A stretch of DNA of 50,397 bases, counting the filler, from Jimgerdemannia flammicorona (lineage: Eukaryota), in the NCBI GenBank assembly GCA_003990765.1. It is 2 parts of 2 records of this genome, joined end to end, with 100 filler letters (N's around TTAATTAATTAA, not from the genome) between each part and the next. Parts side by side here need not be neighbours in the genome. Positions count along the whole stretch, not along the records: positions 1 to 25,151 come from RBNJ01000876.1; 1 more part is not named here. One strand, 5' to 3'. Shown here in pieces: positions 3,110 to 45,762 of the stretch (position 1 is the first letter of the stretch; every line of letters starts with the position of its first letter). The position numbers were made by a program, and so were the translations under genes. A model generated the notes under the pieces. The model did no database searches and was not told the origin of the DNA. It worked only from the letters and a program-made list of their open reading frames with translations.

Positions 3110-4478
3110 AGCACAGCTACACTATTGGAAATGAATTCTTACTCAAAATAGAGCTCAAGAAAATACTCTATAAATTTGAGAATATTCTTACCATAGACTT
3201 CAAGAATATCAAAGGAAAGACTCCACACTACTATTATAATATAGATACTAGAGATATCAAACCAATTTACTAGAAGGCAAGACCTGTCCCACTAGTCTAC
3301 CAAGAGTGGCTCAGAGAAGAAATTAAGCAGATGGAAGAAGTTGGTATCATCAAAGAGGTCAGTAGTCCCTGGTCTTCACCAGTTGTATTAGTCTTAAAGA
3401 AAGGAAGCAAGCCTGGAGAATTTGCCCCAAGACTCTGTATTGATTACAGAAAGCTCAATATAGTCACCAAGAAGGATTGCTAACTACTATCCCTCATCAA
3501 TGATATTCTTATAACTCTGGAAGATGAAGCACAGTACTATAGTATCTTGGATCTATACTCCAGATTCCACCAAATCAGACTCACAGAAACAACAAGTGAG
3601 AAATCAGCCTTTATCACTCCAGATAGAATCTATATCTACCTGTGAATGTTATTTGGAATATGCAATACCCCTATGAGCTTCTAGTAAATAATGAACAAAA
3701 TCTTCTACTATAATATGAGAAGATAGATGATGATTTATATAGATGACATTATTATCTACAGTAAGACAGCTGAGGAATATCTACTATATATCTATTAGAT
3801 AATAGAAAAGCTGAGACAGTATGGTCTTCACATCAAGCCCAAGAAGTGCAAATTTGCAGAAATTGAGATTATCTATCTTGGCCACATCATTAATCAAGAT
3901 GAAACACATATAGATCCTCTTAAGATTCAAGCAGTAGCAGTATATCCAAGGTTTACCACAGTTACTGAAGCCCAAGCCTTCATGAGACTCATCTCATACT
4001 ACCACCAATTTATCAGAGGTTTCTTTAACATCACAGGTCCAATTTATGAACTCAATAAGAAGGATATCAAGTTTCAATAGACTGGTAGGTAAAAAAAAAC
4101 ATTTGATGAGCTTAAGGTCAGACTGACCTAGGCACCTATTCTCAGAAGACCTGATTAGACTCAAGAATTTATCCTATAGACAGATATAAGTACCTAAGAA
4201 CTAGGAGTAGTTCTAGCTCAAAAGAAAGATAAAGTGAAATATATCATTACATACCTAAGTCAAGGAATCTGAGGAGCTGAAAAAGAATATGAATTCTATA
4301 AGTTAGAATGTCTTACAGTTATCTGGACTATAAAAAAGTTCCACTACTACCTCACTGGAAGATACTTCACTATTTAGACAGATCACTCAGCCCTCACTTA
4401 GCTACTGATCACTGGACAACTCAAAGGAATCTATGTCAGATGGATTATGAAGTTGCAAGTATATATTGTAACCATTAT
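3110..4478 (+). pseudogene. pol: E1 reverse transcriptase + RNase H (resumes at 10291-10386 after the hAT)
   Basis: SSPWSSPVVLV, RLCIDYRKLN, LDLYSRFHQI, YIDD, YLGHII, LECLTVIW, TDHSAL, RWIMKLQ. After the insertion it continues TIMHHLGRTNANADVLS. Confidence 0.92.
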
Positions 4479-4529
4479 TAGTGCTCTACAAACCTGATCT
4501 AATTAACTTGAAACCTGACCTATAAAACA

Positions 4530-4790
4530 GCCAACCCAGAATTATATATCACCTATCTTTAACCTAACCTAGAATTATATGTCTTCCATCTTTAATCCAA
4601 CTCAGAATTATATGTCACCCATCTTTAACCTAATCTGGAAAGATATATTATCCATCTTTAACCTGACCCAGAAATATATATCACCTGACCTGTTATTTAC
4701 CCTTAACCCAAACCTAAACCTGATCCCTGAACCTGACCCTGAACCCAATTCCTAAACTCAATTCTGAACCCAACCCTCTGAACTTTGCCT
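4530..4790 (+). repeat. Left subterminal array of the hAT (33-bp unit) plus short aaccct/aacctg repeats
   Basis: atcttt recurs at 4555, 4588, 4621 and 4654. The unit is approximately aacccagaattatatgtcacccatctttaacct. Confidence 0.9.
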
Positions 4791-4859
4791 TGAAAAAATT
4801 ATTCAGATAATATTTAGATAATATTCAAAGTAATTAGAAGTGAAAAATATCTGAAGACT

Positions 4860-7177
4860 ACTAAGAATCCAAATATATATATGTACAAATTGTATTTACA
4901 TATAAGCTATTTTGATATTCAGTTATTAGTTCACTAGTAATAGAAAAAATACATTCAGATAGAACAGATATTGCCAAAATAGCAAGATAATCATGAGCCA
5001 TTCATAAAAGATTAGGATATACTGACCGATTTCACTATTACAAATCTAGTATATCTATATGAGGATTAGCTGGATTCTCTGACAAATAACTGAAACAGAG
5101 AAATATAAGTGAAAATCAACCAAGTCAACTAAAAAATATAAAAACAACACCTATTATTCAAGCTCATCATCCATATAATTATACTATTTCTTCTCATATA
5201 TTGAGTTAATAAAATCATTGATATCATAAGATATTAAGAGTATAATAATAGCATTAACAGGCTTATACACCTTTTCTCAGATATATTCAATCTGATACTT
5301 CCATTCATCAATTAAGGATTTTTTCCATTACTTATAATGGAAATAATATATATTGATATATAGATCTAAGGCCAAAGCTATGTTGTATAATGGTATCATC
5401 TTGTAGTAATATATACTTTAGAAGTTTTATATATTTATTCTCAGCAGCAGTAAGCATTATCTATAAAAAATAAAAAATAAATAGAAATATATACATATTA
5501 CTTCCCAATTACTTACTAAATTAGTTCCTAAATTTACAAATAAAATTACTTTCAAAATCATATATATACTTGATTAAAATTTTCACCAGTTTGATATATA
5601 TTGATAACATCTTGAAAGTGATCACATAGCTTATTAAATAGTGAAATAACAGCCACTATTGTAAGATACTTCAAAGCTAATATCATGGTTGTCACTTTGG
5701 CAAAAAGCTTGAAAAATTGGCAAATTAATTCAAATTATTGCCATATATCTTCAGATATATCACTCATTTACTTATCTATAGCATACAATATATCTAAGCC
5801 CTATTTGGATATAATATTAATTTATTTAGTACCAAAATACTTCTGAATTATATTCTAAAATCTATATAAATAGATTCAAAATCTTATCTTATAAATCTCT
5901 AGAGTATATACTAATATTTCATATATAGAACTCCATCTCATCATAACATCTAAGAGAGGATTCACAGACTTTCACCAGTTATGCTTATCATTGTACTGAA
6001 TTTTTGATCTTCTTTATCAACTCTCATAGCTTTTCAATGAGCTCACTAAGAGAACTAAGAGTATTATGAATGACAAGATTCAACATATATCTGAAATAGT
6101 ATATATAAGTGAGTGAATGATAGAGATTCCCAAACAGAGTATCATTATTACTGGTATTGTCACATACAATAGCAATAGTTTGATTATCACTGGATAATAA
6201 ATCATCTATTATCAGTTCTAGACATTTCACAAGATTAGTACCCATGTATATTATTTCACTAATATTTACAAAGTCTAAGATAATGTTATATATTTTCCAA
6301 TCACTGTCAATCCAATGAGCTGTTATTTCAAGAAAGGCCTTAATATTAATATCTAATGTCCAACAATCAAGTATAAGTGACATCTTTGACTTAAGCTCTG
6401 TTAGTTTTACTTTTACTTGAGTCTGTAATAGTTTGAATTTCTTTCAAATAACTTGCAAAATTATATCAGCCAATGGAAGGGCCAGATCAGGGTGTAATAT
6501 ATAAAGGAGATACTTGAAGTTAGCATTTTTGATAGTAGAGAATAGCTAATATCTAGTGATAATGAAGTTGGTAATTAATTGATAGAAATTTTCATCACTT
6601 AAAGTTTTGCTAGTATGTTCCTATTTGTAATAATAAAATTTGATAAATTATTTTTCTAATAATCTCCTAAGTACTTCCTAAATTCCATTCTATCCATACT
6701 CATACATAATATCATCTTTCTTAGACCAGCAAGGATTCTCAGCACACTAGAGGTAAGAGTATAATATTGTGATGCTTCCAGAGATGTCATTTAAGACTGT
6801 CCTTCAATATATAGCTCCAAGTTATGCAATAGTTGCAACTGATGAGCTTACTTTGTAAATTCTATTTGGATAGAGAGATATGAGATTATATTAGAACCTC
6901 AACTGCTTACAACCAATTACTCTTATAATCAACCACTCTTATGACTGATGAGACAAACTACCCCTATAAATGCAACTATTAATACAATATATAAAACTAC
7001 CTTTGTGATATAATTCTACACTCAGCTATCACCAGGTTTTGTTTTTATTTTTATTCTTATACTTATTAGTGATAATGAATCAGTAGAGATATCTAATATA
7101 TTCTCTGATATATTCTCTGATATATTATCTAACAGTTCTGAGATTTCTCCTAAATGTACTTCTTGATCTTTAGACAT
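4860..7177 (-). pseudogene. hAT transposase (BED-like finger, catalytic core, C-terminal dimerisation domain), intron-containing, decayed
   Basis: SCNYC...LK*HLWKHH at about 6770-6845; SLILDCWT...FLEITAHWIDSDW...IVCDN in ORF 6024-6383; MAHDYLAILAISVLSECIFS...LDS* (decayed MARDYLAIPATSVPSERIFS) at about 4860-5005. Confidence 0.9.
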
Positions 7178-7527
7178 TTCTAAAAATGTTTGATGATAGC
7201 AGAGACTGAGAGCTTGAGTGAGAGGCTGAGAGCTAGAAAGTGACTAGGAAGTGGTGAGCTAGGGAGTGGTGAACTGGGGAATGAGCTGGAAGAGCAGTGA
7301 ACTAGGGAGGGACAGTGAGCAGCAGGGAAAGCCAGAAAATATGGGGCCTGGAACAGGAGTCAGCAAGCTGGGGAGCAGTAAGATAGAGAGCAGTGAGATA
7401 GTGGTATAAGATATGATAGCCAAAGATTAATTGTGGACAGAGAATGGATGAATAAATATATACAGATAGTGAACTGATACTCATCATGTAACTGCAAACA
7501 ACATACTTTGGATATTCAGCATGTTCT

Positions 7528-8206
7528 GTATAATTCAGTATATTCTACATAAGCTCCAATTGAGTGAGATTTGTAATGATGTTTAAGCAAGGTTTATAGT
7601 ATATTTGAGAGAGATTTGCAAGCAATATTAAAGTGAGATTTGCAAGTGATGTTTGAGCAAGATTTGTATAAATCAGGCTTTATAAGCCTTGCACTTGTAA
7701 GCCTGAACAAGTAAGCTGATACATATGACATATATATAAACTGATATCACATAATATCAGCTATCAGCTAAGTAGAGCAAAGCTTATGCTTATGCTTATG
7801 CTTACACTTGCAATTCAGAGCTTTTCTCACTGTGTTCCACTCCTCTCTATATAATTCAGTATGTTCTGTATAAGTCCTGATTGAGTGAGGTTTGTAATAA
7901 TGTTTGAGTGAGATTTGTGATGCATTTGAGCAAGGTTTATAGTGCATTTAAGTGAGACTTACAAGCAATGTTTGAGTGAAATTTGTGATATATTTGAGTA
8001 AGGTTTGTAGTGCATTTGAGTGAGATTTGCATAAGCCAGGCTTTGCAAGCCTTGTACTTATAAGCCTGGACAAGCTCAGTCTGACAAGTTGATAATAAGC
8101 TGATATTATATAATATTAGCTATTAGCTAAGTTGAGCAAAGCTTATACTTATGCTTATACTTACACTTGCAATCTGGAGCTTTTCTTACTACATTCCACT
8201 CCTCTT
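7528..8206. repeat. Tandem duplication (about 320-355 bp x2) with internal ~21-bp subrepeats, between the two divergent hAT ORFs
   Basis: Both units start tataattcagta and end ttccactcctct. They share tttgagtgagatttg subrepeats and agcaaagcttat. Confidence 0.85.
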
Positions 8207-8492
8207 GCATTCCACTCCTCTTGCACAACTCTCACATATTCTTCTACCTCCCTCACTCTCATTTCTCAGATTGCAAACAATATACAATTTAGAAAGGAGT
8301 TTTGAAAGAGATTTTGAAGAGATTTCAAAAGAGCTTCTGAAAGAGATTTCAGAGAGATTCTGAAAGAGCTTCTGAAAGATATTATAGCTTTTGAATATTT
8401 AAGATTTCAAAAGCTTACTTTTGTCTCTTATTCTTTTCACTTTGTCTATTGTTTTGCCTTATCCTTCACTTTACCTCACTTAATTCACCACT

Positions 8493-8767
8493 ATGTTGAG
8501 AATACATAGATATGACCACCCAGTCAATAAGTATTTACTTGGTCCCCCCTAAGTACAATGTACTTCAGCTCACCATTCCAAAGCTCAGTACTCTAAAGAT
8601 ATCCAGCTTGCTGACACCCAGCCTGCTAAGCTTACCAATACCCAGGTTGTTGAGCTTACCAACTTCCAGCTTACTAACCCTCAGCTCTCTGATCTCCAGC
8701 TTGACTGCCAGCTCACCATCAGTCTGCAAGCACAAGGTCTATCCCAATAATGTAGCTTGAAGAAGTT

Positions 8768-8817
<50 letters not shown>

Positions 8818-9798
8818 TTTTTTTTTTTTTTTTTTTTTTTCTTTTTAAATCAATGTCCAAATTTTTTTTCTAATAATATTTGAAATATACATATTCTTCA
8901 GCTTCTACATAAGCCTGGGCTAGAGTACAAATCTTACTACAATTACAATTTTTGCCATCAAGTTTGCCCAAGCACTATCTGGAAGTATTGTCAAACCAAT
9001 TTCTCAGATATCCCAAACCTCATAGAGAAAAGAGCTTATAAATCAGACATTAGACATCTTTTGCTACAGCCAATAAATGCATTAAGAAAGTACATAATGA
9101 CCAACTGAGGCAAGAAGTCATAAGAGCAATAAAAAACTGTGCAAAAATTATAGAATATTTATCATACTATACTGGCTTCAAGGTAAATACCAAAGCATAG
9201 AACAAGTGAGGTTGTCCAGATGGAATTGTTATCATAGATGAACATAAAAAACTGCTGACCATATTTGAATGAGTACTGGTGAAGAATGACAAAATTCTCT
9301 ATAATGTAACTGATGGATAGCAGGCTTATACATTTTGTTAAGAGGGGTGGTGGTAGAGAAGATGGAGAGGTAGGAGAGATCAGTACTGGTAGAGAGATCA
9401 GTGCTAGTAGAGAGATCAGTGGAGAGGTTAGTGTGGGGGAGGTCAGTACAGGGGAGGTCAGCACAGGAGAGGTTGGTATAGGAGAGGTTGATATGGAAGA
9501 GGTCAGTATAGAGGAACATGAGGAGATCAGCATGGGGGAGGTTGGCACAGAGGAACATAGAGAGGTTGGCACAGGGGAGGTCAGCATGGAGGAATATGGA
9601 GAGGTTGGCATAGAGGACAAAATGAAGGTTGGTATAGAGGAGGTTAATATAGAGGAAAATATAAAGAAGAAGGATATAGAGAAAAGCAGTTTGGAATATA
9701 TGAAGGAAGATGGTTTGGAATATAAGAAAGAGGAGAATCAGTTGGTTTATAGCAATGAAGAGGAGGAGGATCAGTTAGTTTATAGTGATGAAGAGTAA
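8493..9798 (+). pseudogene. Second (accessory) gene inside the hAT; probable intron 8765-8901; acidic repeat C-terminus
   Basis: GTTAGT donor, poly-T, CTAAT branch site and CAG acceptor. Splicing gives a continuous frame (AWARVQILLQLQFLPSSLPKHYLEVLSNQF...SFATANKCIKKVHNDQLRQEVIRAIKNCAK...) broken by transition-type stops. Ends in E(V/I)STG-type 15-bp repeats (ORF 9313-9798). Two frameshifts have to be inferred. Confidence 0.55.
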
Positions 9799-9954
9799 GA
9801 TCTGTTTATACTAATAAGTTTTTATTTTCCTGATTTATTTCCTATTTATTTACAATCTTATTTTGATTTCTGATTTCTAATTATATTTCTGTTTGTTTAT
9901 TCTAAATATATATCTTAGATGTGCAATATATATTTTTTTGATACCTTGTAGCTT

Positions 9955-10270
9955 AAAGGCAGATTAAAGATGAGTCTGTATTAGGTTAAATATAGGTCAG
10001 AGTTGGATTACATATATTTCTTGGGTTAGGTCATATATATTGCTTGGGTTAGGTTAAAGATGGGTTATGTATAATTCTGGGTTGGGTTAAAGATAGTAAT
10101 ATATATTTCCAGATTGAGTTAAAGATAGGTAACATTTAATTCTGGGTCAGGTTAAAGATGGGTGACATATAAGTCTGGGTCAGATTAAAGATAGGTGATA
10201 TATATTTCAAGATTAGGTTAAAGATGAGTGACATATAATTCCAGATTGGGTTAAATATGTACATGGGTTG
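9955..10270 (-). repeat. Right subterminal array of the hAT (inverted copies of the 33-bp unit)
   Basis: ttaaagatg recurs about every 33 bp and is the reverse complement of the left array. Confidence 0.9.
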
Positions 10271-10378
10271 GCTCAGGTTGTGATGCACTAACCATCATGC
10301 ACCACCTAGGAAGAACTAATGCCAATGCAGATGTTCTCTCATGGATACTCCAAAGGACTCCCAAACAGTAAATCAATC

Positions 10379-11560
10379 ATGAATAAAGAGCTCTACTATA
10401 GAATGATCACCTATCTAGAATAGTGAAAGATGCCCCAAAATCTGAAAGAATAGACACAAATGATTATCAATAGCATATGGAAATAATTTGAAATCAATGG
10501 AGAAATATTGAAAAAAGAAAAGCTACTAGTTATACCAGAATACAAAAAGGAGTAAGCAATGAAATCAGTACATGAACTTGGCCATCTGGGAGGAACAAAC
10601 ACATATGATAAAGTAAGAAGAACAATATAGTAGCCAGGAATGGAAGAAGATATCAGATGATTTGTCAAGACCTGTAACAAATGCTAGAAATAGAAAAAAA
10701 ATCAACAAAATCAAGCTCCAGGATTAGTACTCATAAAACCAGTACTATTTGCCTACATTGTAATAGATGTGATTGGCCCCCTACCCTGGCAACCAATATA
10801 TCATTGTTATCATAGATCTTTTCATGAAATGGATAGAGACAGGACTCCTTAAGAAAGCCAATACACAGTCAATTGCTGATTTCTTTCACAAAGAAATCAT
10901 CTGCTAGTTCAAGACCCCAACACAAGTAACTACAGATAGAGGAACAGAATTCATGAACCAGTTCTTTGAGATTCTCTATAAGAAGTATAAGATCCAGCAC
11001 ATTCAGACTACAGCATACTATTCTCAAGAAAATGGACAGGCAGAAAGGACCAACAAGACCCTCAAAAATATTATTGTTAAGATCTATAATAACTACAAAA
11101 ACTGGGATCACTATCTGCCAATAGTATTATCTACTCTTCAAGATATTCAATCATAAAGCACCCATTTCACCCCTTGGAAAATACTGTTCAGAGAAGAAGG
11201 TTCTCAAGAAACTCTATCATTCAATAGAGATGCTGTATGGAAACATATAGATAGAGAAATATGGAGACTATATCAAATCAGGAAGAAGGCTGAGGATTAT
11301 ATAACCATGGCACAGACACTATAATGGAATAATGCAGAAAAGGTTCACAAGCCCCTGGAGATTATCAAAATAGAAGACAAAGCTCTGGTATATCAGAATA
11401 TAATAGAAGTTTCATGATCACAAAACCTAGAGCCTAAGTGAGAAGGACCTTACCTTGTGCAAGATATAAAAGAAACTACCTTTTGGCTATAAAAACTCTC
11501 AGGCATAATCATCCTCACTACTATTCACCAAAACTGACCCAAGAAGTATTATAGCTAGTC
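10379..11560 (+). pseudogene. int: E1 integrase, in a separate ORF starting MNKELYYRMITYL
   Basis: HELGHLGGTNTY...CNKC (HHCC), IVIDVIGPLP, TTDRGTEF, YSQENGQAERTNKTLK, and *EGPYLV (GPY/F). Confidence 0.9.
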
Positions 11561-11568
11561 AACAAAGT

Positions 11569-11983
11569 ATGACCACAGCTCTCAAAATCACTAGTGCTAC
11601 ACAATGACATAGAAAGACAATAGTATACTACCAAGCTACTCATAATAGAGAAATTCTTCAATAGTATCCAAAGTATAGTACAGATATATCTGTTATGAAT
11701 TTCATGCTTCAAGGCCTACCAGAATTAGACAGAGCTTCAAGAATACTTCAAGTTAAGATAGCTACTGAATTCATAGTCAGAAATGGAAAAAGAAGACTGG
11801 ATCAGAGAGTGCCAGCTCTCTCACTCTCAGATCATGATTGTCAAATAAGTTAATAAGCTATTCAAAGATAACAAGACAGCTCTAGCCCATTTCTGAGAAG
11901 TAGTTCTAGGAGATTTTGGACATATTAAGAGATATTATTCAGAGAATATAATGATACAAATTGCATAGTATAAGGAGATATAA
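11569..11983 (+). pseudogene. E1 ORF3: small accessory ORF between integrase and PPT
   Basis: From 11690 one frame reads ...ELQEYFKLR*LLNS*SEMEKEDWIRECQLSHSQIMIVK*VNKLFKDNKTALAHF*EVVLGDFGHI... The stops are all one transition from sense codons. One frameshift near 11688. Confidence 0.6.
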
Positions 11984-12051
11984 ATTGTAGAAGCTTGGGA
12001 GTTCAAGTGAATAGGATGTTTTAGAGACAAATTATCTATTCAGGAGGAAGT

Positions 12052-16669: not shown

Positions 16670-16671
<2 letters not shown>
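12463..16671 (-). mobile_element. E3: heavily decayed Ty3/gypsy of a different (Tf/chromovirus-like) lineage; partial 5' LTR at about 16399-16671
   Basis: Minus strand: VVLLDSSTIGNFIS (PR, about 15450), ILFIKKKDDSL*IYIDY*VLKKITIKN (RT, about 14740), ELHNTPAADYFGFKKTY (IN, about 13420), EPYQILEKI (GPY, about 12520). TGTAACA at 16399 and ~18-bp repeats at 16530-16605. Confidence 0.85.
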
Positions 16672-16709
<38 letters not shown>

Positions 16710-16715
16710 CTTTTG

Positions 16716-16747
<32 letters not shown>

Positions 16748-16849: not shown

Positions 16850-19800
16850 CCCACCCAGCCCCCAACCTCACCACCAGCTATTCAAAATGTCCAATGGCAA
16901 CCATTCCCAATGTGCTACCTTGTCCCCAACCCCAACCCACTGCCCCTCCTCAAAGACATGAACCCAATGCCCAGCCAACCTAACCCACATAGCCAAAGTC
17001 CAACCAAGTATCAGCCATTCATCCCTAACTCCACCCACTAGTCACCAGCGGAGCTCTCCCCATCTCCCCCCTCTCTCTCCCTCCAAGGCACCCAGCCCTA
17101 CCTGGTCCATAATATATCTCCAAAATTCCTCCAAAACTTCACACTCACTAAGCCAATGTTCAGGTATTTGTACCACCCCTCCCTCCTGACCAATGCCGAA
17201 ACACTCCTCACACTCAAATACCCCACCAGCCACCAAGTGCCCAGACCAATAGTTCAACATCACATTCCACTGTAGGACATACCACCACACCACCCAGAAC
17301 TTGGGGGGCAGCCACTGTCTCACCCTTTTGCTCCAAAGCCAGAGTCTATTTCAATCCCACTCCTCACCAATTCCAACCCTCTGCCAGGCTTCGGGCCACA
17401 GGTCTCCACCTAGGCCTCGCAGATACTCCAGATTCTCGCCAAGTTGAAAGTTCTCCACTGGAACACCACCCAGTAGAAGTCTGTCCCACCACCACATCCG
17501 TGGTCCCCAATCCTCCTTGGCTTCATCACCTTGCCATCAAAGTCTAATTTTCTTTGCACCATCCACCACCCTCCACCAGAAGCCCATAAACTGCATCCTC
17601 CTGCTCCCATCCATGGCCACCATCGCGAGCAGGTCACCCAAGTCACTATGTGGGGAGTACTGAACCTCCCACAACCTCTGCATGAGTGGCACCCACTCCT
17701 GACCCCTAAGCTCACTTGCCCTCTGCAACCACCAAGCTCTCAAACATAGAAGCTGCTTAGTAAAGTCCACTAAGCCCAGCCCACCTCTTTCCAAGGGCAG
17801 TGTGAGTACCTCCCAACCCACTTGGCTTTGCCACCCTCCCCAGATCCATGTTCTCACTATCTTCAACAACCCCTTGACCACCCAGGTTGGGAAATCCAAA
17901 TAATATCCCACATACCACAGCTTTGGCATCCAATACACATTCAGCACCATTACCCTGCCAGCTAGGGACATATGCCAACCTCCCCATTACAGCAGAACAC
18001 TTCCCCACTCCAGAAGTTTTCAATCCCACCATGCCTGGGGAAGAAGGGATCTGAACACCAAGAAGTAGATCTCTAAATAACACACTGGCTCACCAGCTGG
18101 TACTACTATCCCAATGACATCACCACCTACAATTCCAGCACCCAGCACCAGAGTCTCGCATTTGTGCCAGTTTAGTTTAGCACCAAAACCCTCTCATACC
18201 ATTCCACAGACTGCTGTAACTCCCCCACATCTACCAAGGAGCCCAGCCCGACCACTATATCATCAGCAAAGGCCCCCACCTTCCAATTAATCTCTAAAAT
18301 GTCCAAACCCCCAATCTGATGCTAAATTCTATCCAGTAGGGGCTCCAGAGAAAGGGTATACAATATGGGCAACAAGGGGTCCCCCTGCGGTACCCCATGT
18401 CCCAGAGGAAAGGTCACCCCCCTGTGGCCATTAATGACCAATGCCATCTGACTGTCCTCCAAGAGGCTGATCAATGATCCTCGGAACCCTGGGGGGATAC
18501 CAATCCGTTTCAGCACTCCCTCTAGCCAAATCCTCCACACTCTATCATAAGTCTTCTCTTGGTCCAGAAACACCAATCTGCCATTCACCTCTGTTGCCCA
18601 GGCACCTTCAATCACTCCATGTACCCAAGCTGTCCCATCTTGAATCAACCGGCCACCAACAAACCCATGCTGCTCCACACCAAGTACCTGCTGAATGATT
18701 CCTTGTAGCCTCATCACCAGGATCTTCGTCACCAGTTTGTGGTCTATATCAAGAAGTATGATTGGCTGCCAGTTCTTCCAGTTCTCTTGCCTCCCCTTAT
18801 TCTTGTAGAGCAAGGAGACTAGCCCTAAACACTGTCCCCTGATCTAAGCACCAGATCGAAGAACTCCATCACACATAGCAGTCATTTCCTCTAGCACCTC
18901 ACTCACCCCAGTCATCTTCTGCCAAAAATCCCAGGGAAGTCTATCCTCTCTCAGAGCCATCCCCTTATTCATCAAGGCCACAACCTTGCAAATTTCCTTG
19001 CCATGCACCAGGTCCCCCAATGCCCCAAGTCCCATTGCAGGGTTTAGGTACCAATCTCCCAGCTGCCTTTCAACATCCAGAGCATCCATTCCTCCTTCCT
19101 CCTTACTCCATAGATTCTCCCAACTGGTTCTCAATAGGCCCAGAATTTCTGGAGTCCCCACCACCAGCTCGCCATTCATGTCCAGAACTCCCTCCCACTG
19201 CTGCTTCATTCGTCACACTTGTAACAACCATGACAAAAACCTAGTAGGCCTCTCCCCCTCCTCAAGCCCCTGCCACCGCAGTTGGGCCACCATTCCCTGC
19301 AGCTTCACCTCCTCCTCCCTTTGTAACACTCCTTTAAGCTCCTCTACCTCCTGTCAGATTCTCACAATATGCCAATCAGTCACATCCCCATCTTCCAGCA
19401 CATCTGCCCATTGCTCCATGAGTGCTGCCAGATGCCTCGAGGCCCACAGCACCCTCTGCCTTTGCTGGGCACCCTTTCCTTTCCCAGCTTCCCTCCAATA
19501 CCCCTGAGCATTTGCCTTCAGTCTTCTCCAGCAGTCCCCAATCCCAAGGCCTTGTTCCTGCCACCTACTGATATTTCCAACCACCTCCTTTTCCCAATCC
19601 TCCCACAATACCCTATCCTCTAACAAGAAAGAATTTAGCTGCCAATGTCCAGGCCCATCCTCATTTCCCCCAAACCTCCCCCCTCCAAGCAGCCCCCAGT
19701 GATCTGACCACAGACACCAAACTACCTCCAGCCTCAACCAGACATCTGCTCCCCAACACTCCGCTGTCAAAACCCAGTCAATCCTGGAGCCCAGCCCTGC

Positions 19801-20409
19801 CACCCAGTGGATGTATACCTGCCGATTGGCCCAAAAAAGCCTTCCTGAGTCCACTAAAGAACTCAACCTCTCTGTCTCCAACCAGTCACCCAACCCACCA
19901 CTTTTGCCCCATATATCTCTCTCTCCATCTGTTCTATCTATCTCCTTATCCCATATCATGTTGAAGTCACCCCCCATACAGTCCAGCCCAACTTCTCCCA
20001 ATACTCCAGCCTCCTTCAATCTGCGAATCCAATCCATCCTCTCCCCTCTCTCAGCTGGGCAGTAACAAGACCCAACCATCAATGAGCCCCATCTAGGCCT
20101 CTTCTACATTCTCCACACCACCCAAGATCCCCAATGTCCAATGTCCTCAATGTCCCCCATCTCTTTCCAAACAAGAATACACACTTTCTCCCTCCATATT
20201 ACTGCACTCTCCCATTCCTTAGTCCAATCCTGTAAGTCCACATCTGCCTCATAGTGAACATCCTGTAACAAGAAGAGGTCCACATCCAGTCCCTTAAGCC
20301 ATCCAAATATATACTTCCTCCTAGCCACCCCCTGTAACCCATTAACATTCAATGAGAATATCCTAGTTATATTGTTCATATTGAAAGAATGTTGCAATAG
20401 AGACCCCAT
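16850..20409 (-). pseudogene. LINE A ORF2: AP endonuclease + reverse transcriptase + C-terminal Cys finger
   Basis: SLNVNGL, LLQDVH, GGDFN, SRIDW, WSDH, WQLNSFLL, NWQPIILL, DQEKTYDRV, GVPQGDPL, AFADD (about 18260-18275), SLAGRVMVLN, LPLERGGLGL, CEEC. Several stops and frameshifts. Confidence 0.93.
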
Positions 20410-20410
20410 C

Positions 20411-22330
20411 CTAGAATTCCATGCTCATCTCATCCCCAGCCAGATCCAAGTGCCTTTCAGCTTCCAAGTCACCCTCTGCATTAGCCTGAGCATCTAGTGC
20501 CTTTAAGATTTCCTGACATTCTACCCCATCCACTACCTCCATCTCCGACTGATAGTCTAAGCAGACCATGCACCACTTCTCCAGTCCCTTTCTTGAGTTC
20601 CACAAGAATCGTGCCCTATCACTCACAATCCTCCTAAGTTCCTCCTCTCTCTGATCATTAACTTGATATTCAACCAACTCCAGGAGGACAGCCAGGATCT
20701 CGTTCCTAATCTTTCTCAGCACCTCCTCCCCCTGTAGGATCTCCTCCCAATGCCTCTCTTCCATCACCCTGAAATCCTCACCCTCCAGCTCTTCTGCCAC
20801 TACCCCTTCTAGAGTCTTCCACATTCACTTCTCCTCATCCACCACCTCTGCCACACTCTGAGTGATTTGTCCCCCATCTACCTCAGGGTCCACCAATGCA
20901 CTCCTCCTTACTGACTCATCCCACTCCTCATCTGGCACATCCAGCAGCTCCTCCTCTCCCTCAGCTCCACCTGGGACACTATACTGGGGGCACACACCTT
21001 CGCTTATATCCACATCTGCCTCTATATTGCCTTCCCTCTCCACCTCTACTCCCAGCTGAGTCCCGCTCTGAGCCCTTTCACCCCTCTCAGCCCAGGCACT
21101 CTCCTGCAATCCTGCACCCCTCTCCCCTGAGCCTCCACTAGCCCTACCCCCACCCAATCTTGCCAGTAGCTCCTTCTGGATTTTCCTCCCCTATAACTTC
21201 TCCCAGGCCCCCTTCTCCATCCAGACCCTCTTCCCATCCACCTTCCACACTACTATCCAGGCCTCAAACTCCTTCCATGCCAATCTCCTCCTTGCAACTG
21301 CCCCTTCCAGATCCTCCAGAGCCTCCAACAGGTCTTCCTCCTCCTCCTGGGTCCCCTTCACCCTCATGACCTTGCACTCCACCAGTCCCCACCTCAGCAT
21401 TGCCAACCAGTCCCTCAACTTCCCCGTACTCTCCCTCTCAGCCAGCCTCACCTTGACATTGATGTCACTAGTCTGAAGCTCCATACCCTCCCAGACCTTG
21501 AACCCAATATCTACAATCTCTCCATACTCCCTGATCACCTCTGCAACCAACTCCCTGGTCCTCTCCTTCGATACCATAGGAAGATCCAATACCATCAACT
21601 GCACCACTTGGGGGTCCCAGCACATGCACCTGGCCATAGGGACCACAACCCCACCAACTGTCACCCCCTTCTCCAAGGCTGCCAGCAAGGCATCTTCCTC
21701 CTTGAACCCCACCTTGACCCCTTCCTTCCTTTTCAAAAACTTCACCGATGCTGCTCCCTTTGCCTCCTGCGCCACCAGCCCCAAAATCATCCTTGTCGTC
21801 ACCGCTAAGCCCCAGAAATACATTGTGACTGCGAATTCCGACCTCAACTTCTTAAGTAACAGGGCTGACACCATGCCCATCACCCCATCTGCCAGGTCCC
21901 CAGACCTCGTGCCCACTCCCTGTCCTGAATTATCAACCGCCATCACATCTGGATTTTTTGCCAGATCCCTAGTCACAGCCCCATCACCAGTCACATCTCC
22001 AGCCCCTACTCCTGCTCCTTCCCTACCATCAGAAACTCCCCTGGGTACACCTCTCTGTCCCCCAGCAGCAGCTGTTGATGCCTTCCCCAGGCCCAGCCAA
22101 TCATCTAGACCTGAGGCCATCTTCCCCATTCTGACCTTGTCAGCAAAGATCAACCTATCCCCTCCTCTCTGCCTCAGACTGCCCCTCTCTCCACCACCAG
22201 GACCTCAGCTAGCCATTGAGGCCCCTGGCATCCCCAAACTATCTCCCCTCCTCCCCACCTGCTGCCAGCCAAAGGCACCATCACCCCCCTGGCCAGTACA
22301 CTCACTAGTTCATTCATTGCCATCCATATC
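20411..22330 (-). pseudogene. LINE A ORF1 (putative RRM-like core, acidic C-terminus)
   Basis: ORF fragments 21191-22153, 20825-21157 and 20411-20824 lie directly 5' of ORF2. The ORF1 stop is 1 nt before the ORF2 ATG. Confidence 0.75.
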
Positions 22331-22410
22331 AATAGTTGTCAAACACTAAAAACATAGTAAAAGTGTTATCTGAGTCTTGTGTCATCCAAATGTTACTAGT
22401 GAAAGATAAA

Positions 22411-35212: not shown

Positions 35213-35618
35213 AACTCTTTTCCTGCGTATCTGTTCATTCAATGGTATTCATGCGTGCGCAACGGCGGAGCTGCTGCAGGAGTGGCGCCGCCGTGGGATC
35301 ACGACATTGACGGCGGACGCCAATATGAAATGGGGGTGAGCTTCTGTTAGTAATTTGGAGTTCTGGAAGAAGGGGATTGTTTATTTTGATATTCTTGTAA
35401 TGCATTCCAGAAATTATTGATGACGTAAAGATTGATGACTTTTGAAGACGTTTACATTTAAACATAAGCTATTCAAATTTCCGTTACTCAAGATATAACG
35501 AATGTAAGCAAAGAAGGAATGACAAACGAACTACATGTAAGCAAAAGAAGAACCATCTGATTCATATAATATAGGAAATGTAGTGAAAATGTAGAATGTA
35601 GATATATATTGAATATAT

Positions 35619-36927
35619 TGTAATGGTGACCTCAGAATGGTGACCATATGGCATGAGCATGACTTATTCAGGCTATAAGATAAGTAATGATGATTAATTA
35701 TGAGTTGTAATGACCACAAGATAGATATCTTGAGAAATATAAAAGAAGGATAAGAAACTGCAGTAGCAGCAATTCAAACAAGATTCACAAAATCCCTAAA
35801 TAGTTCAAAAGACTTATTATAAACAAAATACTTGCTGTTTATTAAATCATAAGATCTTGAAATTATTAAAGCTTTTTAGTTTAAGAAAGGATATTCCAAG
35901 ACATCAGGAAAGCTATGAGGACTTACACCAGAAGAATTTCTAGCTTCAACCTGAGTACTGGTGACTTTTATCACTTTACTCTCTACTGTTGTAAAATAGA
36001 GATAAGGATAACTACTGCTATGAAATGCTTCTGGATGTAGCAGGAATATGAAATAAGAAACCTTCTCTGCCAGGTGAATTCTCTTAGGTCAGTTCTCAAG
36101 AGATATAAGATATCACTTTTATAAATATATATAAATTGAGAGTAGCCAAAAATATCTATCAAGTTTTCAGATATGTATATATCTTGATCAATCTCCAACT
36201 TGGAGCTCACTAGAGTCTCAGACTTCAAAGAATTGTCAGCTCACTACACAGATACACTGGAGGCTATAGTGTCCACAGAAGCTCAATCTGCCATCATTCT
36301 CAAAAGTGATGAGATAGAAGAGTTTTGAAATCTCATCCTTAAGAATAATCCAGATTAATTCTTATAAGAATTAATCTTAATATTCCAAGGCTCCAGTATC
36401 CAGGTCAGACTCTCTCAAGATCTTACCTTTGTCTCCTACTTTATGGAGGAAAATATAATAGATTGAAGAATCCCTGATCTTCTTACTGTCATTGAACATG
36501 ATGATGTCACTGTTGATAACATCATCTCACTAATTGATACATATGAAATAAATAAAACAGAAATATTTACTGACCTTATTTCCTTCAAAGACATTCTGTC
36601 TCTAACCTCTAGCCTTGATGACAGTGATGAAGACAAAGTCTCCAGAATTTTGAACATTCTACTCTGATTTATTTATATAATCATTTATTTGAATACTTGA
36701 ATGTTCTGGCATTCTGACTTCATGCAACTATCAGAAATTATTCCAGTCTTCTACTCAATTCTATGCAAGTAAATCTAAGAGACAACAAAACAGTTTAAAT
36801 ATAAGAAGTTTGAGGACTATAAGATCTTAAGAAGGTACTTCAATAGAACTTACTTATAAGAAATTTAAAGTTGGTCTAAGAGATATATCTTCATATACTT
36901 GGAGAACTCAGTACTTACTATATGATA
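35619..36927 (+). repeat. E2 5' LTR (1309 bp; lacks the distal TATA/AATAAA segment)
   Basis: Starts TGTAATGGTGACCTCAGAATGG and ends tatgata (decayed TGTGACA). Homologous to 42542-44095. Confidence 0.93.
35828..36667 (+). pseudogene. LTR-encoded ORF, 5' LTR copy
   Basis: Colinear with the ORFs at 42780-43591 and 44347-45191. TATAAAA at 35738. Confidence 0.75.
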
Positions 36928-37053
36928 ACTTGGTGTCTATTGGCTGGTAATATCATTAGGATATCTCACTTTCAAGCTGAGTAATGAACAATTACCAAAA
37001 CAACTACTCTGACTACAAGAGTTATTTTTACAAAAATTCAAGATAAGATAGAA

Positions 37054-40999: not shown

Positions 41000-42175
41000 G
41001 AAGCTATACTATAGATTAATCAGCTATCTTAGGCAGCAGAAAATGCCCAACTACCTCAAACCCTGGACTATCACTATTATAAACCAGACTTGGAAAAAAT
41101 TTGAACTAGACAACACCACACTCAGAAAAAGAGAAAAACTCATTATATCTAAATACAAGAAGTATCAAATAATGATGGAAGTATATATAAGGACACCTAG
41201 GAGGAACCAATATATATAACAAGGCAAAAAGAACCATATGGTGGTCTAAGATAGAAGAAGACCTACATCAATTTATCAAAGGGTATGACAAGTGCCAAAA
41301 ACAGAAATAACATCAGCAAAACCAGATACCTGGATCATCAAGAATCAAATCTATCCCCTTCCACCATATTACAATGGACATCATTGGACCACTATTAGTA
41401 ACTCTATCAGAAAACCACTATTGTAGATCTCTTTATCAAATAGATAGAAGCAAGAGTATTACAAGAAGTCAATGCTCTCTCTATTGCTGACTTTTTATAC
41501 TGAGAAATCATCTACCACTACAAGACACTAAGAGAAATCACCACAGACTATGGTACAGAATTTTTCAACAGATTCTATGAGATAATATATCAGAAATATA
41601 AGATTCAGTATATCAAGACTACTGTGTATCACTCTCAAGGAAATGGACAAATAGAAAGAATAAACAAGACCCTCAAGAACATTCTGACCAAGATCTCAAA
41701 TACATATGAGAATTGGGATAACTACCTCCTAACTGCCCTCTCTATTCTACAAGATATATAGTTACAGAGTACACATTTTACCTCAAGAGAACTGCTTTTC
41801 AGAGAAGAAGATTCTGATGAAACCTCAGCTACAAATCTAGATCTAACTTAGTAACAGATTAACTCAGAAATCTGGAGACTACACCAAATCAGGAAGAAGG
41901 TAGAAGATTACATCATCAAGTTACAAGCAATAATAAGGAAGAATGTGGAAAAGAATCACAAGACCCTAGAACTTATTCAAATTGGAGAAAAGGTTCTACT
42001 ATATCAAAATATAATAGAAGCCTCATAGTTACAAAAACTGAAGCCCAAATGGGAAGAACCCTTCTATGTACAAGATATCAAGAGAACTACCTTCTGGCTT
42101 AGAAAACTCTTAGGGACCATACTGCCTACCATAGTATATAGAAATAGACTTAAGAAGTACTATGAACCTATATAA
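40992..42175 (+). pseudogene. int: E2 integrase, in a separate ORF starting MNKKLYYRLISYL
   Basis: GHLGG, DKCQK, MDIIGPL, TTDYGTEF, HSQGNGQIERINKTLK, KWEEPFYV. Confidence 0.9.
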
Positions 42176-42187
42176 GAGAAACAAAAT

Positions 42188-42498
42188 ATGATGACTACCT
42201 GTAAGGTTCTAGTCCATAAATCATAACAGCATATCCTATGACCAGCAGGTAATCTGTCTGGATCATTCTCTAAGGAATATGGTATAAGTAACTACTCATC
42301 TATGAGATTTTCAAAGCTAGAGAAGTTCAAACTATCAACTGATTGATCAAGATCAGAATCAGACACTTACTCTATATGAAGGAAGCTATCCTTCACCATT
42401 ATATCAAAATATATAAAGAAGACACCAGTCTATAAATATCACTTTTCAACTCCTTGCCAGAGGTTATGGAATTAGAAAATGTTTTCAAACTGGACTAA
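42188..42498 (+). pseudogene. E2 ORF3: small accessory ORF between integrase and PPT
   Basis: ...LLIYEIFKAREVQTIN*LIKIRIRHLLYMKEAILHHYIKIYKEDTSL*ISLFNSLPEVMELENVFKLD*. Same position as E1 ORF3. Confidence 0.5.
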
Positions 42499-42541
42499 TG
42501 AATAAGAACATTCAGGAGAAGATCCTTATTCAGGAGGAAGA

Positions 42542-44095
42542 TGTAACAGTGACCTCAGAATGGTGACATCATTACAGGAGACAGCCTTTTCTTACAAGCT
42601 ATTAGATTAGAGTATAAGAAGATTATATGGTATAACTCACCCAGGCTATAAGATAAGCAATGATGACCAACCATGAGTCATGACAACTATAAGATAGATA
42701 TCTCAAGGAATATAAAAGAAGGACTAAGAAACTGCAGCAGTAGTAACTCAAACAAGACTCACAAAATTCTACAAACAAAATACCTACTGCTTGCCAAACT
42801 GCAAGGTCCAGAAATCACTAAGGCTTCTCAGTTCAAGAAAGGATATTCCAAGACATCAGGAGAGCCATAAGGATCTGTACTAGAAGGATTCCTAGCCTCA
42901 ATCTGGATACTAGTGACTCTTATCACTTTACCCTCTACTGCTATAAAATAGTAACAAGGATCACTACCACTACTGAATATCTCTAGATGTGACAGGAATA
43001 CAAAATAGGAAACTTCCTCTATCAGAAATTCCCTCAGACCAGTCCCCAAGAGATATAAGATGCCACTCCTATAGATGCATATAAATTGAGGGTAGCCAAA
43101 AAGATCCATCAGGTCTTCAGATATATATCTTGGTCAATCTCCAACTTGGAGTATACCAGAGTCTCAGACTTCAAGAAATTGTCAGCCTGCTATACAGATA
43201 CACTAGAGGCCATAGTGGTCACAGAAGTCCAATCTACTATCACTCTCAAAAGTGATGAGGTAAAAGAGTTCTAGAATTCCATCCTCAAGGATTAATCTCA
43301 GTATTCTAAGGCTCCAGTATCCAGGTCAGACTCTCTCAAAATTCCACCTTTGTTTCTTACTTTGTAGAAGAAAAAGTCATAGATTGGAGAGCCCCTGATC
43401 TCCTTCCTACTGCCATCAAACATGATGATATTACTGGTGATAATATCATCCTGCTAATTAACACATATGAAACAAATGAAACAGAAATATTCACTGATCT
43501 TATTTTCTTCAAAGATATCCTATCTCCAACCTTTAGCCTTGATAATAGTGACAAAGACAAAGCCCTCAGTAGTTTGAACATTCTACTCTGATTTGTTTAT
43601 ATAACTATTTGTTTAAATACTTAAATGTTCTGGCATTCTGACTTTATGCAACTGTCAGAAATTATTCCAGCATTCTGATCTTGTTTAACCAATTGTATGA
43701 GCACTTGAATTTATACTTACAACCTGAAGTTTTCTATATTCAAATATATTATTTAGTTATTGGATTTTATATTTAGCTTTATATCTTAATAACTATTAAA
43801 TTACATTTTGTATAAATACTCCTCTCATTTTCTTTGAAATAAAGTCAGTATTAAAACACTCAAGTATTCAAGTATCCAACTACTCAAGAGTACAGAAGTT
43901 CTGGTCCTCTACTTAATTCCATACAAGTAAATCTAAGAGACAACAGAATATTTAAAGATAAGAAGTTTGAGGACTATAAGATCTTAGAAAGGCACTCCAA
44001 TAGAACTTACTTATAAGAAACTTATAGTTGGTCTAAGAGATATATCTTGAAGAGAATCTAATATACTCAGAGAACTTAGTACCTACTATATGACA
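42542..44095 (+). repeat. E2 3' LTR (1554 bp)
   Basis: Runs TGTAACAGTGACC...TATGACA. TATAAAA at 42711, TATAAA at 43811, AATAAA at 43838. Confidence 0.95.
42780..43591 (+). pseudogene. LTR-encoded ORF, 3' LTR copy
   Basis: Reads through, in frame, both junctions that are frameshifted in the solo LTR: ...DATPIDAYKLRVAKKIHQVFR... and ...QVRLSQNSTFVSYFVEEKVIDWRAPDLLP... Confidence 0.78.
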
Positions 44096-44346
44096 ATATA
44101 TATATTGTAACGGTGACTCCAGAATGATGACATTAGTACAGGAGACAGTCCTTCCTTGCAAGCCACCAGATCAGAGCACAAGAAGATTATATGGCATATG
44201 AGATGAGCAATGGTGACCAACTGTGAGTCATTGTGACCACAGTATAGTATCTCAAGGAATATAAAAGAAGGATCAAGGAACTGCAGTAGCAGCAACCAAC
44301 AAGACCCACCAATCCCAAAATAGCTCAAAGACTTACCACAAATGAA

Positions 44347-45191
44347 ATGCCTGCCACTTGCCAAACCTCAAGATCAAGGAACCACCAAGGCACCTCAGTT
44401 GAAGAAAGAATGTTCCAAGACATCAGGAGAGCTATGAGGACCTGCTTAAGAAGGACTCCTAGTGTTGACCTGGGTACTGCAGACCTATATCACTTCATTC
44501 TCTACTGCTGTGAAATGGAAATGAGGATCACCATTGCTACCAAATGCCTCCAAATATGGCAAGAGTACAAAATAGGAAACCTCCTCTGCTGGGAGTTCCC
44601 ACAGACCAGCTCTCAAGAGCAACAAGATGCCACTCTCATGGATATATGTATGCGAGACAAGAATAGCTAAGAAGATCCATCAGATCTTCAGGCATGCACC
44701 ATGGTTGATCCCCAACTTGAAGTATGTCAGAGTCTCAGACTTCAGAGACCTGTCATCCTGCGATATCAATGCACTAGAAGCCAGGGTGGCTACAGAAGCT
44801 CAGTCCACAATCACCCTCAATAGTGATGAAGTAGAAGACTTCTGGCACCCCATCCTCCAGAACAACCCAGACCAATTCCTGCAAGGATTGATCTCAGTAT
44901 TCCAAGGCCCAAGCATCCAGGTTAGACCTCTCCAAGACCCTCTATTTTGTGGAAGAGAACCTCATAGACTGGAGAGCTCCAGATCTCCTTCCCGATTTCT
45001 CTACCACCAAACATAATGATGTCATCGGTGATGATGTCATCCTGCACAACTTCGAAGTATGCGAAACACATGACCTACATGATGAATTCATGGACCTCAT
45101 CTCCTTCAAAGATATTCTGACCTCTGATGATGAGGATGAAGCCCCCATAGTTCTGAACTTTCTGCTCCAAGTTCTTTGTTACACTGAATAA
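44347..45191 (+). pseudogene. LTR-encoded ORF of about 280 aa, best-preserved copy (two frameshifts)
   Basis: ORF-track pieces 44347-44670, 44627-45016 and 44949-45191 join into one protein. TATAAAA at 44260 is upstream and AATAAA at 45472 is downstream. Confidence 0.8.
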
Positions 45192-45345
45192 TGCCAGCAC
45201 TGGCATTCTGAGATGATGCAGAATTGTTCCAGCACCGGTATTCTGAGGTGATGCAGAATTGTTTCAGCACTGGTATTTTGATGTAATACTAAATAATGCC
45301 AGCACCAGTATTCTGATATAATACTGAATTATACCAGCATCCTGA
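45185..45345 (+). repeat. 35-bp tandem array (about 4.5 copies) in the solo LTR
   Basis: cagca(c/t) recurs at 45195, 45230, 45265, 45300 and 45335. Confidence 0.92.
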
Positions 45346-45762
45346 ACCTATACAACCATCAGTACCGACCCTGGAACTTAGTAGTTTTAGTTATTGGAAT
45401 TTATATTTAGCTTTATATCTTAGCAAACATTGAATTATATTTTGTATAAATACCCCTCTTATTTCCTCTGAAATAAAGTCAGTTCCTCTCAGTACAATAT
45501 ACATACTTCCTTGCAAGCAATCTAAAAGATAACAAGATAGTTTAAAGATAAGAAGTTTGAGGACTATAAGACCTTAGGAAGGCACTCCAATAAGAACTTG
45601 CTTATATCAAACTTGAGTTAGTCTAAGAGATACACCTTGAAGCGAATCTGGTGTATTTGAAGGACTCAGTGACCACTATGTGACAATATATATAATATTT
45701 AAAATATAGAAAGACTTTTTAAGGATCTGAAAAATAGTTATATTAATATAGAGATTATATAA

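Follow-up and report, generated by a model that had tools for sequence, protein, structure and literature searches.

The window analysed here, a stretch of 50,397 nucleotides (nt), filler included, from Jimgerdemannia flammicorona, is AT-rich and dense in repeats and contains two related Ty3/gypsy long terminal repeat (LTR) retrotransposons, E1 and E2, both on the + strand. In both elements Pfam finds the pol domains in the order RVP_2, dUTPase, RVT_1, RT_RNaseH, Integrase_H2C2 and rve, and by this domain order E1 and E2 belong to Ty3/gypsy (Metaviridae); the gene order of the lineage is gag, protease (PR), dUTPase, reverse transcriptase (RT), RNase H and integrase (IN). E1 and E2 are 67-69% identical in DNA through pol (self-BLAST), and their integrase proteins are 57% identical up to the last residues. 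This text concerns an accessory gene found at two different places in these elements. In E1-type elements, it is a third open reading frame (ORF3) on the pol side of the polypurine tract (PPT), while in E2 the accessory ORF lies beyond the PPT, within the LTR. Probably, ORF3 of E1 is a real third gene and the LTR ORF of E2 is its homologue moved into the U3 part of the LTR.

Both elements are dead, and their decay has a distinct signature. Compared with undamaged relatives, C>T or G>A changes account for 277 of 348 substitutions in E2 (80%) and 257 of 450 in E1 (57%), most often at CpG and CpA and with CpG preferred over CpA; such C>T decay suggests a fungal host. Where one element has a premature stop, its sister has a W, Q or R codon, and for this reason, as well as for the C>T/G>A bias and the frameshifts, a variant genetic code in which TAA and TAG are read as Q is rejected. 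Undamaged relatives come from metagenome contigs, which were scanned with the integrase C-terminus to give 10 loci. One of them, L001, is a copy of the E2 family (82% identity over 2107 nt, GC 0.46, integrase match free of stops), and another, L002, is a copy of the E1 family (75% nucleotide identity over 1866 nt, GC 0.46, one stop in the integrase match). Elements of the E1/E2 type recur in soil metagenomes; a small share of the element's words occurs in one soil-metagenome DNA run, and no RNA run is among those listed. As a separate observation on decay, the same integrase codon is stopped in E1 (~11413-11415) and E2 (~42024-42026), at column 210 of alignment A4 (...IIE[AV]SX...). L001 and L002 have W there (EASWS), and the shared stop looks like repeated G>A decay of one TGG rather than common ancestry.

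In L002, an ORF of 166 codons from stop to stop, or 153 residues from its ATG, overlaps the end of pol, and the remaining frames are closed. The window stretch 11569-11983 falls within the collinear dead copy of this ORF in E1 (Table 1), which has lost its start codon, carries a 2-nt deletion near 11607 and 10 premature stops, and is recognized by the broad ORF3 hidden Markov model (HMM) at 11603-12004 with 106.8 bits. Ten database proteins that are 65-96% identical to the L002 ORF3 protein align with it without gaps and keep the 153-residue length. Furthermore, L005 and L004 (integrase 46% identical to that of E2) have ORF3 homologues at the equivalent place and frame, with lengths of 154 and 168 residues and profile scores of 29.8 and 16.9 bits, respectively, and a weaker homologue in L007 scores 19.9 bits when the broad profile is used. 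Intact ORF3 copies in three relatives span 153-168 codons. The frame is +1 relative to pol in the window copy of E1, L002, L004, L005 and L007, and the ATG lies upstream of the end of the pol ORF by 44 nt in L002, 35 nt in L005 and 17 nt in L004. In the intact relatives ORF3 occupies the space between pol and the PPT; in L005, the PPT and the LTR start come directly after the ORF3 stop.

The pol C-terminus of L002 (...YHGKSTEYSHSPQDH*) sets that of E1, and in 7/7 related loci pol ends 6-46 residues past a conserved HRNR[LI].. motif, at which L005 has YN where the other loci have YH. Pfam finds no chromo domain after the integrase of E1 or E2, and the lineage thus lacks the chromodomain C-terminal to GPY/F that distinguishes chromoviruses.

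For the pair L004 and L005, the ORF3 frame has a ratio of nonsynonymous to synonymous differences per site (pN/pS) of 0.30, with synonymous sites saturated; the ratio is 0.10 for integrase, and the two alternative frames of ORF3 give 0.98 and 1.08. An exhaustive search with the ORF3 profile finds 14 proteins at E <= 0.001 among 1.84 billion representatives. Because the frames are intact and collinear in the relatives and pN/pS is 0.30, ORF3 is a genuine protein-coding gene under purifying selection. A reading of 11569-11983 as non-coding 3' untranslated region is ruled out by the L002 frame, the gap-free homologues and pN/pS.

The LTR-borne ORF of the E2 family is damaged in all three LTR copies of the window, and one collinear reading is common to the three. 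The LTR-protein HMM matches the 3' LTR at 42954-43295 and 43286-43588. In the third LTR copy the ORF lies in three pieces (44347-44643, 44654-44950 and 44949-45167) and is homologous to the metagenome protein P0035 (271 residues, MPA... to ...LNFLL). Intact versions in one frame are the metagenome proteins P0001-P0004, P0035, P0036 (247 residues) and P0037. The ORF has a conserved start codon and a conserved ...LN[FI]LL at its C-terminus, and the start lies inside the LTR, 241 nt from its beginning in the window (44106 to 44347) and 253 nt in L001. The first ~170 residues of the LTR protein correspond to a diverged homologue of the whole ORF3 protein and are followed by an acidic tail.

It was a first-pass annotation of the window that had linked the two ORFs, from a residue pattern seen by eye. 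The strings that it quoted are present, EYFKLR from 11741 and VVLGDF from 11900 in the frame of 11570, and IAKKIHQIF at 44663 and VRVSDF at 44726. It had read EYKIGNLL (44563) and IAKKIHQIF as one protein; the two are in different frames in the third LTR copy but share one frame in the 5' LTR, the 3' LTR and P0001. Its proposal that ORF3 and the LTR ORF are one family in two positions, to be judged by profile-profile comparison, is borne out once intact relatives are used. In HHalign, the ORF3 alignment A9 and the alignment A12, made of metagenome LTR proteins only, match with a probability of 95.1% (E 3.3e-8, 97 columns), and neither profile contains a window sequence. A9 (16 sequences) was built after the exhaustive profile search; it leaves out P0021 and P0025 (tandem-repeat proteins), P0019 (a 49-residue fragment), P0015 (near-identical to L005) and P0011 (107 residues), and also the close E1-family relatives P0005, P0008, P0013 and P0014.

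The signal grows with each addition of diverse ORF3 members. Against alignment A3, the degraded E1 frame gives E 0.54 and the intact L002 ORF3 alone E 0.2, both in a register other than the one claimed. In the claimed register, the E1-family alignment A6 gives P 0.0044 (probability 7.9%), A7, with L004 and L005 added, gives P 9.9e-5 (58%, 71 columns), and A9 gives P 1.2e-7 (94.2%, 87 columns). At full length, A9 and A10 match with 93.0% over 148 columns, pairing ORF3 residues 9-153 with LTR-protein residues 18-173 in that register, and the shared unit is nearly the whole of ORF3 instead of the small domain first envisaged. The shared register reads Y-[FY]-x-[IL]-G-x-[AL]-L, then I-A-x-[RK]-I-[YH]-x-[LIV]-F ... 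D-[FW]. In low-confidence models of the two proteins, four predicted helices out of five are in register.

Single sequences and profiles match reciprocally. The ORF3 profile, with no LTR protein inside, matches P0001 with 36.8 bits and P0002 with 24.5 bits, and the LTR-protein profile matches P0023 with 28.2 bits and P0006, P0022 and P0010 at ~1e-5. When the ORF3 profile is run over 66 six-frame translations of the window and the loci, the window LTR copies rank right behind the ORF3 loci; the broad ORF3 HMM scores 22.7 bits (independent E-value, i-E, 2.4e-7) on the 3' LTR at 42834-43232 and 17.9 bits (i-E 7e-6) on another LTR copy of the window. The window copy in E1, the window LTR copies and P0001 all match A9. 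As controls, alignments were reversed or had their columns shuffled, including shuffles confined to 8-column blocks. In three comparisons with observed scores of 24.6, 34.9 and 56.8, reversed alignments score 13.3-14.9, and the observed score is reached by 0/120, 0/260 and 0/160 shuffles (maxima 21.8, 23.5 and 27.1). The second of these is A7 against A3 (reversed 13.3 and 13.5), and the third is A9 against A12 (reversed 13.6 and 14.6). Judged by these profiles, ORF3 and the LTR protein are very probably homologous.

The two positions are separated by a junction common to both lineages. E1, E2, L001 (1722-1735) and L002 (5231-5244) have the same PPT 14-mer, and between E1 and E2 conservation extends from the PPT into the first 35-40 nt of the LTR (64 nt at 78%), so that the PPT-LTR junction itself seems to have stayed put. 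On its pol side, E1, L002, L004, L005 and L007 have ORF3 after pol, and E2 does not. In the spacer between pol and PPT, L001 has no ORF of at least 30 codons in the frame proposed for an "E2 ORF3", and ORF3 profiles find no match in the spacer of E2 or L001; therefore E2-type elements carry the family member in the LTR only. The "E2 ORF3" at 42188-42498, once taken for a weaker member of the family, does not survive this comparison, its HHalign probability being 0.07%. A 21-residue BLASTP match between degraded frames of E1 and E2 (10/21, E 0.019) was considered as an ORF3 remnant in the E2 spacer and set aside, having no profile support in E2 or L001. The LTR of L004 has no ORF3-like ORF.

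Two observations on the relatives belong here. At L002 5328-5427, a perfect short tandem repeat, VEILADVEILAD in translation, starts ~90 nt into the LTR. Positions 1713-2700 of L004 hold ORF3, then ~0.9 kb, then a gag-like ORF (PMTFIEDFEQY...), and with its order of IN, ORF3, LTR and gag the contig represents either tandem elements with a common LTR or an assembly collapsed over LTRs.

Within the E2 LTR, the ORF starts past the PPT and the LTR start and ends before a conserved TATA-like box and an AATAAA (Table 1). Because it is upstream of both, the former marking the likely transcription start, the LTR ORF probably lies in U3, and the 35-nt tandem repeat next to it may be an enhancer-like U3 sequence. 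If so, the gene would be copied into both LTRs in each round of retrotransposition. The post-pol site would be ancestral, as four lineages have the gene there, some of them further from E2 than E1 is. The order in genomic RNA, gag, pol, accessory gene and R, would be the same in both lineages, and the difference would come down to whether the plus-strand primer site stands after the gene (E1) or before it (E2). A shift of the PPT, in which a new PPT upstream of ORF3 turns it into U3, is not supported, since the PPT-LTR junction is conserved and no relic PPT is seen past the LTR ORF. The arrangement is better explained by an insertion or recombination that brought the gene into U3, after which the post-pol copy was lost. 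Of the first-pass proposal that the gene was duplicated and captured into U3, the change of position stands, while the mechanism is one of several routes. The firm ground is that ORF3 is a gene, that the two proteins are homologous, and that they are encoded at the two positions described.

Results that weigh against the explanation as a whole are given in this and the next three paragraphs, each with the alternative that it touches. The assignment of U3, R and U5 comes from motifs, and a retrotransposon-borne context is seen for four loci and the window, most members of the family being on short metagenome contigs; scans of viral contigs for further members gave no match. The E2 lineage might also have lost its own ORF3 and taken a distant member of the family, from another retrotransposon or a host gene, into U3 by recombination. 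Such an independent acquisition is the less likely course and still a serious one. The LTR protein is just 14-20% identical to E1-family ORF3 proteins (HHalign), against 57% for the integrases, and its best single match is in other branches of the family, to P0023, L002 ORF3 reaching just 1.2 bits. The conserved PPT-LTR junction and the missing relic PPT agree with recombination, and ORF3 types are shared between unrelated retroelements in bdelloid rotifers, as excerpts of one study describe (PMC5408684). In the family tree the LTR protein joins P0023 at 78/88; however, this grouping is one of long branches with support below the level of trust. On this tree, the gene may as well have descended within the E2 lineage as have come from another element, and a protein evolving rapidly in its new position would leave the same trace. 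A host (non-transposon) member is absent among the 10 family proteins looked up and their cluster members, all of which come from metagenome collections and are named "hypothetical protein" at most.

It is improbable that the LTR ORF is a fossil, i.e., an untranslated passenger fragment of ORF3 in the E2 LTR and no working gene. Every window copy is indeed broken (13 stops; 7 stops and a frameshift; two frameshifts), and a U3 ORF in the 5' LTR would lie upstream of the element's own promoter. However, intact ORFs of 271, 247, 215 and 174 residues are kept on separate metagenome contigs at 70-80% mutual identity with their start codon and ...LN[FI]LL end, the window copies owe their breaks to the C->T decay that also ruined pol, and length and order of the conserved blocks are kept over the 148 columns aligned with ORF3.

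The window sequences by themselves give no support for homology. The ungapped alignment on which the first-pass annotation relied does exist, with 6/27 identities and a BLOSUM62 score of 29 (last 23 residues: 4/23, score 21), yet it is no better than chance: a score of 29 is reached by 31% of 300 shuffles of the E1 frame against three LTR frames (p about 0.3), and the two E1 frames not involved in the match score higher (34 and 31). When the comparison is limited to the 129-residue ORF, 2.1% of 1000 shuffles get to 29. Smith-Waterman scores of all frame pairs in the window range from 25 to 52, the claimed pair having 34. With window sequences alone, BLASTP finds nothing at E <= 100 and HHalign gives a probability of 0.1% in a different register; the LTR-protein HMM run over six frames of the window finds the LTR copies only, and the E1 post-pol region shows no DNA similarity to any of the LTR copies in sensitive blastn. 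Even the intact proteins match one-to-one with 12/44 identities at E 0.41, and the exhaustive search with A7 (1.84 billion representatives) does not list the LTR proteins at E <= 0.001. Both profiles are shallow, with an effective number of sequences (Neff) of 1.3-4.0, the range in which HH-suite statistics are least calibrated, and the AlphaFold models, with a mean confidence (pLDDT) of 55 for ORF3 and 34 for the LTR protein, are too poor for a comparison of folds. A chance resemblance of unrelated ORFs, made of amphipathic-helix periodicity and a few shared residues in a pair picked by eye out of many possible, would account for these failures and for the helical prediction of both proteins, but it is largely refuted and now very improbable, since the match at E 3.3e-8 was obtained without window sequence, scores drop from the observed 35-57 to 13-15 in reversed alignments, where composition and periodicity are preserved, 0/540 column shuffles reach the observed scores, the reciprocal HMM matches of 28-37 bits share a single register, and the signal rises steadily with diversity.

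As for the nature of the protein, the earlier judgement that it is not an envelope protein (Env) holds. The highest Kyte-Doolittle mean over 19 residues is 1.24, so that 13/13 proteins stay under the usual 1.6; no signal peptide, no transmembrane or fusion segment and no match to an Env family is found. The isoelectric point is 4.1-6.8 in 12/13 proteins and 9.1 in P0026, i.e., the family is mostly acidic, and the ORF3 protein is predicted to be all-helical. Pfam has no family for either protein at E <= 1 beyond noise. HTH_Tnp_Mu_2 is touched weakly by 2/16 members (best E 0.031), and the models are too poor to speak for or against this fold. Among PDB sequences no relative is found (best E 0.42), Foldseek finds none in PDB at E <= 0.001, VIA-align wide gives a best Z of 5.4 to generic helical structures, and the ESM Atlas yields no named family. 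As a weak lead, ORF3 and the LTR protein have several of their nearest unnamed ESM Atlas clusters in common. By analogy with 3' accessory genes of retroviruses, the protein might be a non-enzymatic factor acting in trans and expressed from a 3'-terminal subgenomic or spliced RNA, with possible roles in control of LTR transcription, RNA handling or blunting of host silencing; this is a guess with the odds against it. Similarly doubtful is the wider proposal of a new class of accessory proteins, on both sides of the PPT in sister lineages, that would be trans-acting regulators (of LTR transcription, RNA export or host silencing) needed for replication.

Table 1. Features of E1, E2 and the neighbouring LTR copy, in positions of the window
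Feature	Position	Strand	Remarks
E1	window left edge to ~12050	+	dUTPase-bearing Ty3/gypsy element, split by insertion
Insertion in E1	4370..10307	.	~5.9 kb, unrelated; separates RNase H from integrase
E1 integrase core and C-terminus	10788..11594	+	Pfam rve, Integrase_H2C2; GPY/F-type module
E1 premature pol stop	11556-11558	+	
E1 pol natural stop	11592-11594	+	set by intact relative L002
E1 ORF3, dead copy	11551..12010	+	collinear with intact L002:4743-5201; +1 frame relative to pol, overlaps last pol codons
E1 ORF3 natural stop	12008-12010	+	
E1 PPT, TATTCAGGAGGAAG	12037..12050	+	14-mer also in E2, L001 and L002
E1 3' LTR start	~12052	+	heavily mutated; from junction alignment
E2 5' LTR	35569..36937	+	start approximate, alignable to other copies from ~35659; repeat families, self-BLAST
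LTR ORF in 5' LTR	35831..36664	+	single frame, 13 premature stops in 278 codons; LTR-protein HMM 358.8 bits; alignment A10
E2 primer-binding site (PBS)-like, TGGTGTCTATTGG	~36941	+	after 5' LTR, read from sequence
E2 pol stop	42224-42226	+	set by intact relative L001
E2 spacer, pol stop to PPT	42227..42526	+	300 nt, without ORF3
E2 PPT	42527..42540	+	same 14-mer as E1
E2 3' LTR	42542..44105	+	repeat families, self-BLAST; 1.56 kb
LTR ORF in 3' LTR	42780..43588	+	frameshift near 43290, 7 premature stops
Third LTR copy	44106..45694	+	abuts 3' LTR head to tail
LTR ORF in third LTR copy	44347..45167	+	start codon kept, 0 premature stops, two frameshifts
Tandem repeat, 35 nt x 4.4	45186..45339	+	directly downstream of LTR ORF
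TATA-like, TGTATAAATAC	45443-45453	+	~275 nt past LTR ORF; conserved in 3' LTR at 43809-43819
AATAAA-containing, GAAATAAAGTCAGT	45470-45483	+	~300 nt past LTR ORF; conserved in 3' LTR at 43836-43849

The rest of the window is made up of further repeats. Homology between E1 and E2 breaks off at 4369 and restarts at 10308 (self-BLAST). The insertion in between has inverted terminal repeats (~4531-4690 versus 10024-10258, 77-84% identity), which suggests a foldback element or one of the terminal inverted repeat (TIR) type; three ORFs tested from it match no Pfam family. Of the LTR-type features of E1, only PBS and PPT are clear, its LTRs being clipped by the window edge or unalignable. Positions 1-455, where the end of the 5' LTR of E1 is expected, have a GC of 0.45 and no detectable similarity to the E2 LTR or to what lies from 12052 on (GC about 0.28-0.30), and the 3' LTR of E1 has either been replaced or mutated past recognition. 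At the other end of the window, the third LTR copy has the fewest mutations of the three (GC 0.44). In 42542-45694, a short AT run joins it to the 3' LTR, without any internal region, and as the two are only 70% identical, it did not arise by recent duplication and could be the solo LTR of a different family member that E2 hit or recombined with.

Degraded copies of a non-LTR element, similar to long interspersed nuclear elements (LINEs), occupy 17000-25100 on the - strand and 25606-27171. Pfam matches in this region are RVT_1 (E 2.6e-14) and, weakly, Exo_endo_phos (E 0.0023). Its GC is about 0.5 amid the AT-rich window and its GC skew on the + strand is near -0.5; on the coding strand G is thus very frequent, and W, G and V abound in the proteins. 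The match to a diverged second copy is at 63%. Poly-T tracts of ~70-80 nt with few interruptions occur at 8770-8850, inside the insertion, and at 16670-16745, beside the end of the LINE-like region.

Extra genes of LTR retrotransposons are known; for the most part they are orphans whose origin is unknown and whose position does not vary. The family described here is a conserved accessory gene under selection, without known relatives, that is found after pol in at least four lineages and in the LTR in one, and it offers a comparative system for how genes enter U3 and what this does to expression and copy number. It has been overlooked by annotation pipelines, every member being an unnamed ORF of a metagenome contig. 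There is also a caution on method: homology was hidden in the C->T-mutated copies and was seen only by way of undamaged relatives. Word searches of the literature found no account of the ORF3 family or of homologues flanking the PPT, though absence is not provable by such searches, which leave the supplementary tables of a fungal survey uncovered.

Among known systems, the elements of bdelloid rotifers come close in several points. Excerpts of the study describing them (PMC5408684) report many types of ORF3, some shared between retroelements, dUTPase between PR and RT, and GPY/F without a chromodomain. As far as these excerpts go, the likeness consists of a third sense-strand ORF after pol in Ty3/gypsy-type elements, of a dUTPase placed between PR and RT, as also in the basidiomycete PosPlaTy3-5, and of a GPY/F integrase without chromodomain combined with exchangeable ORF3 types. 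The rotifer ORF3s in the same excerpts are Env-like, GDSL esterase, DEDDy exonuclease or coiled-coil/transmembrane proteins, whereas the family here has no transmembrane segment or enzyme signature, and rotifer LTRs are given as 159-551 bp, in contrast to the gene-bearing LTR of 1.56 kb here. In fungi, Boty-like elements of Botrytis cinerea have brtn, described in an excerpt as an antisense extra gene of unknown function (PMC8365987); it is likewise an additional gene in a gypsy element, but ORF3 and the LTR ORF are sense-strand ORFs.

The Env-like ORF3 of errantiviruses and of Athila/Tat elements has the same position between pol and the 3' LTR, while the ORF3 proteins here are of 153-170 residues and have neither signal peptide nor transmembrane segment. 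For the LTR ORF, a comparable arrangement is that of the retroviral accessory genes sag of mouse mammary tumour virus (MMTV) and nef of human and simian immunodeficiency viruses (HIV/SIV), which are located in U3 of the 3' LTR or extend into it. In both cases, a non-structural gene stands 3' of the PPT and in both LTRs; in E2 it would likewise be part of U3 and lie at the 3' end of genomic RNA. The likeness is one of arrangement only, as there is no sequence relationship (Pfam finds nothing here), and the hosts of sag and nef are vertebrates, unlike the host here. For sag and nef, we know of no sister lineage with a homologue on the pol side of the PPT, whereas the sister lineage of E2, E1, still has one there. 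If the explanation proposed here is right, E1 and E2 form a before-and-after pair for a retroelement gene joining U3, as sag and nef did in retroviruses.

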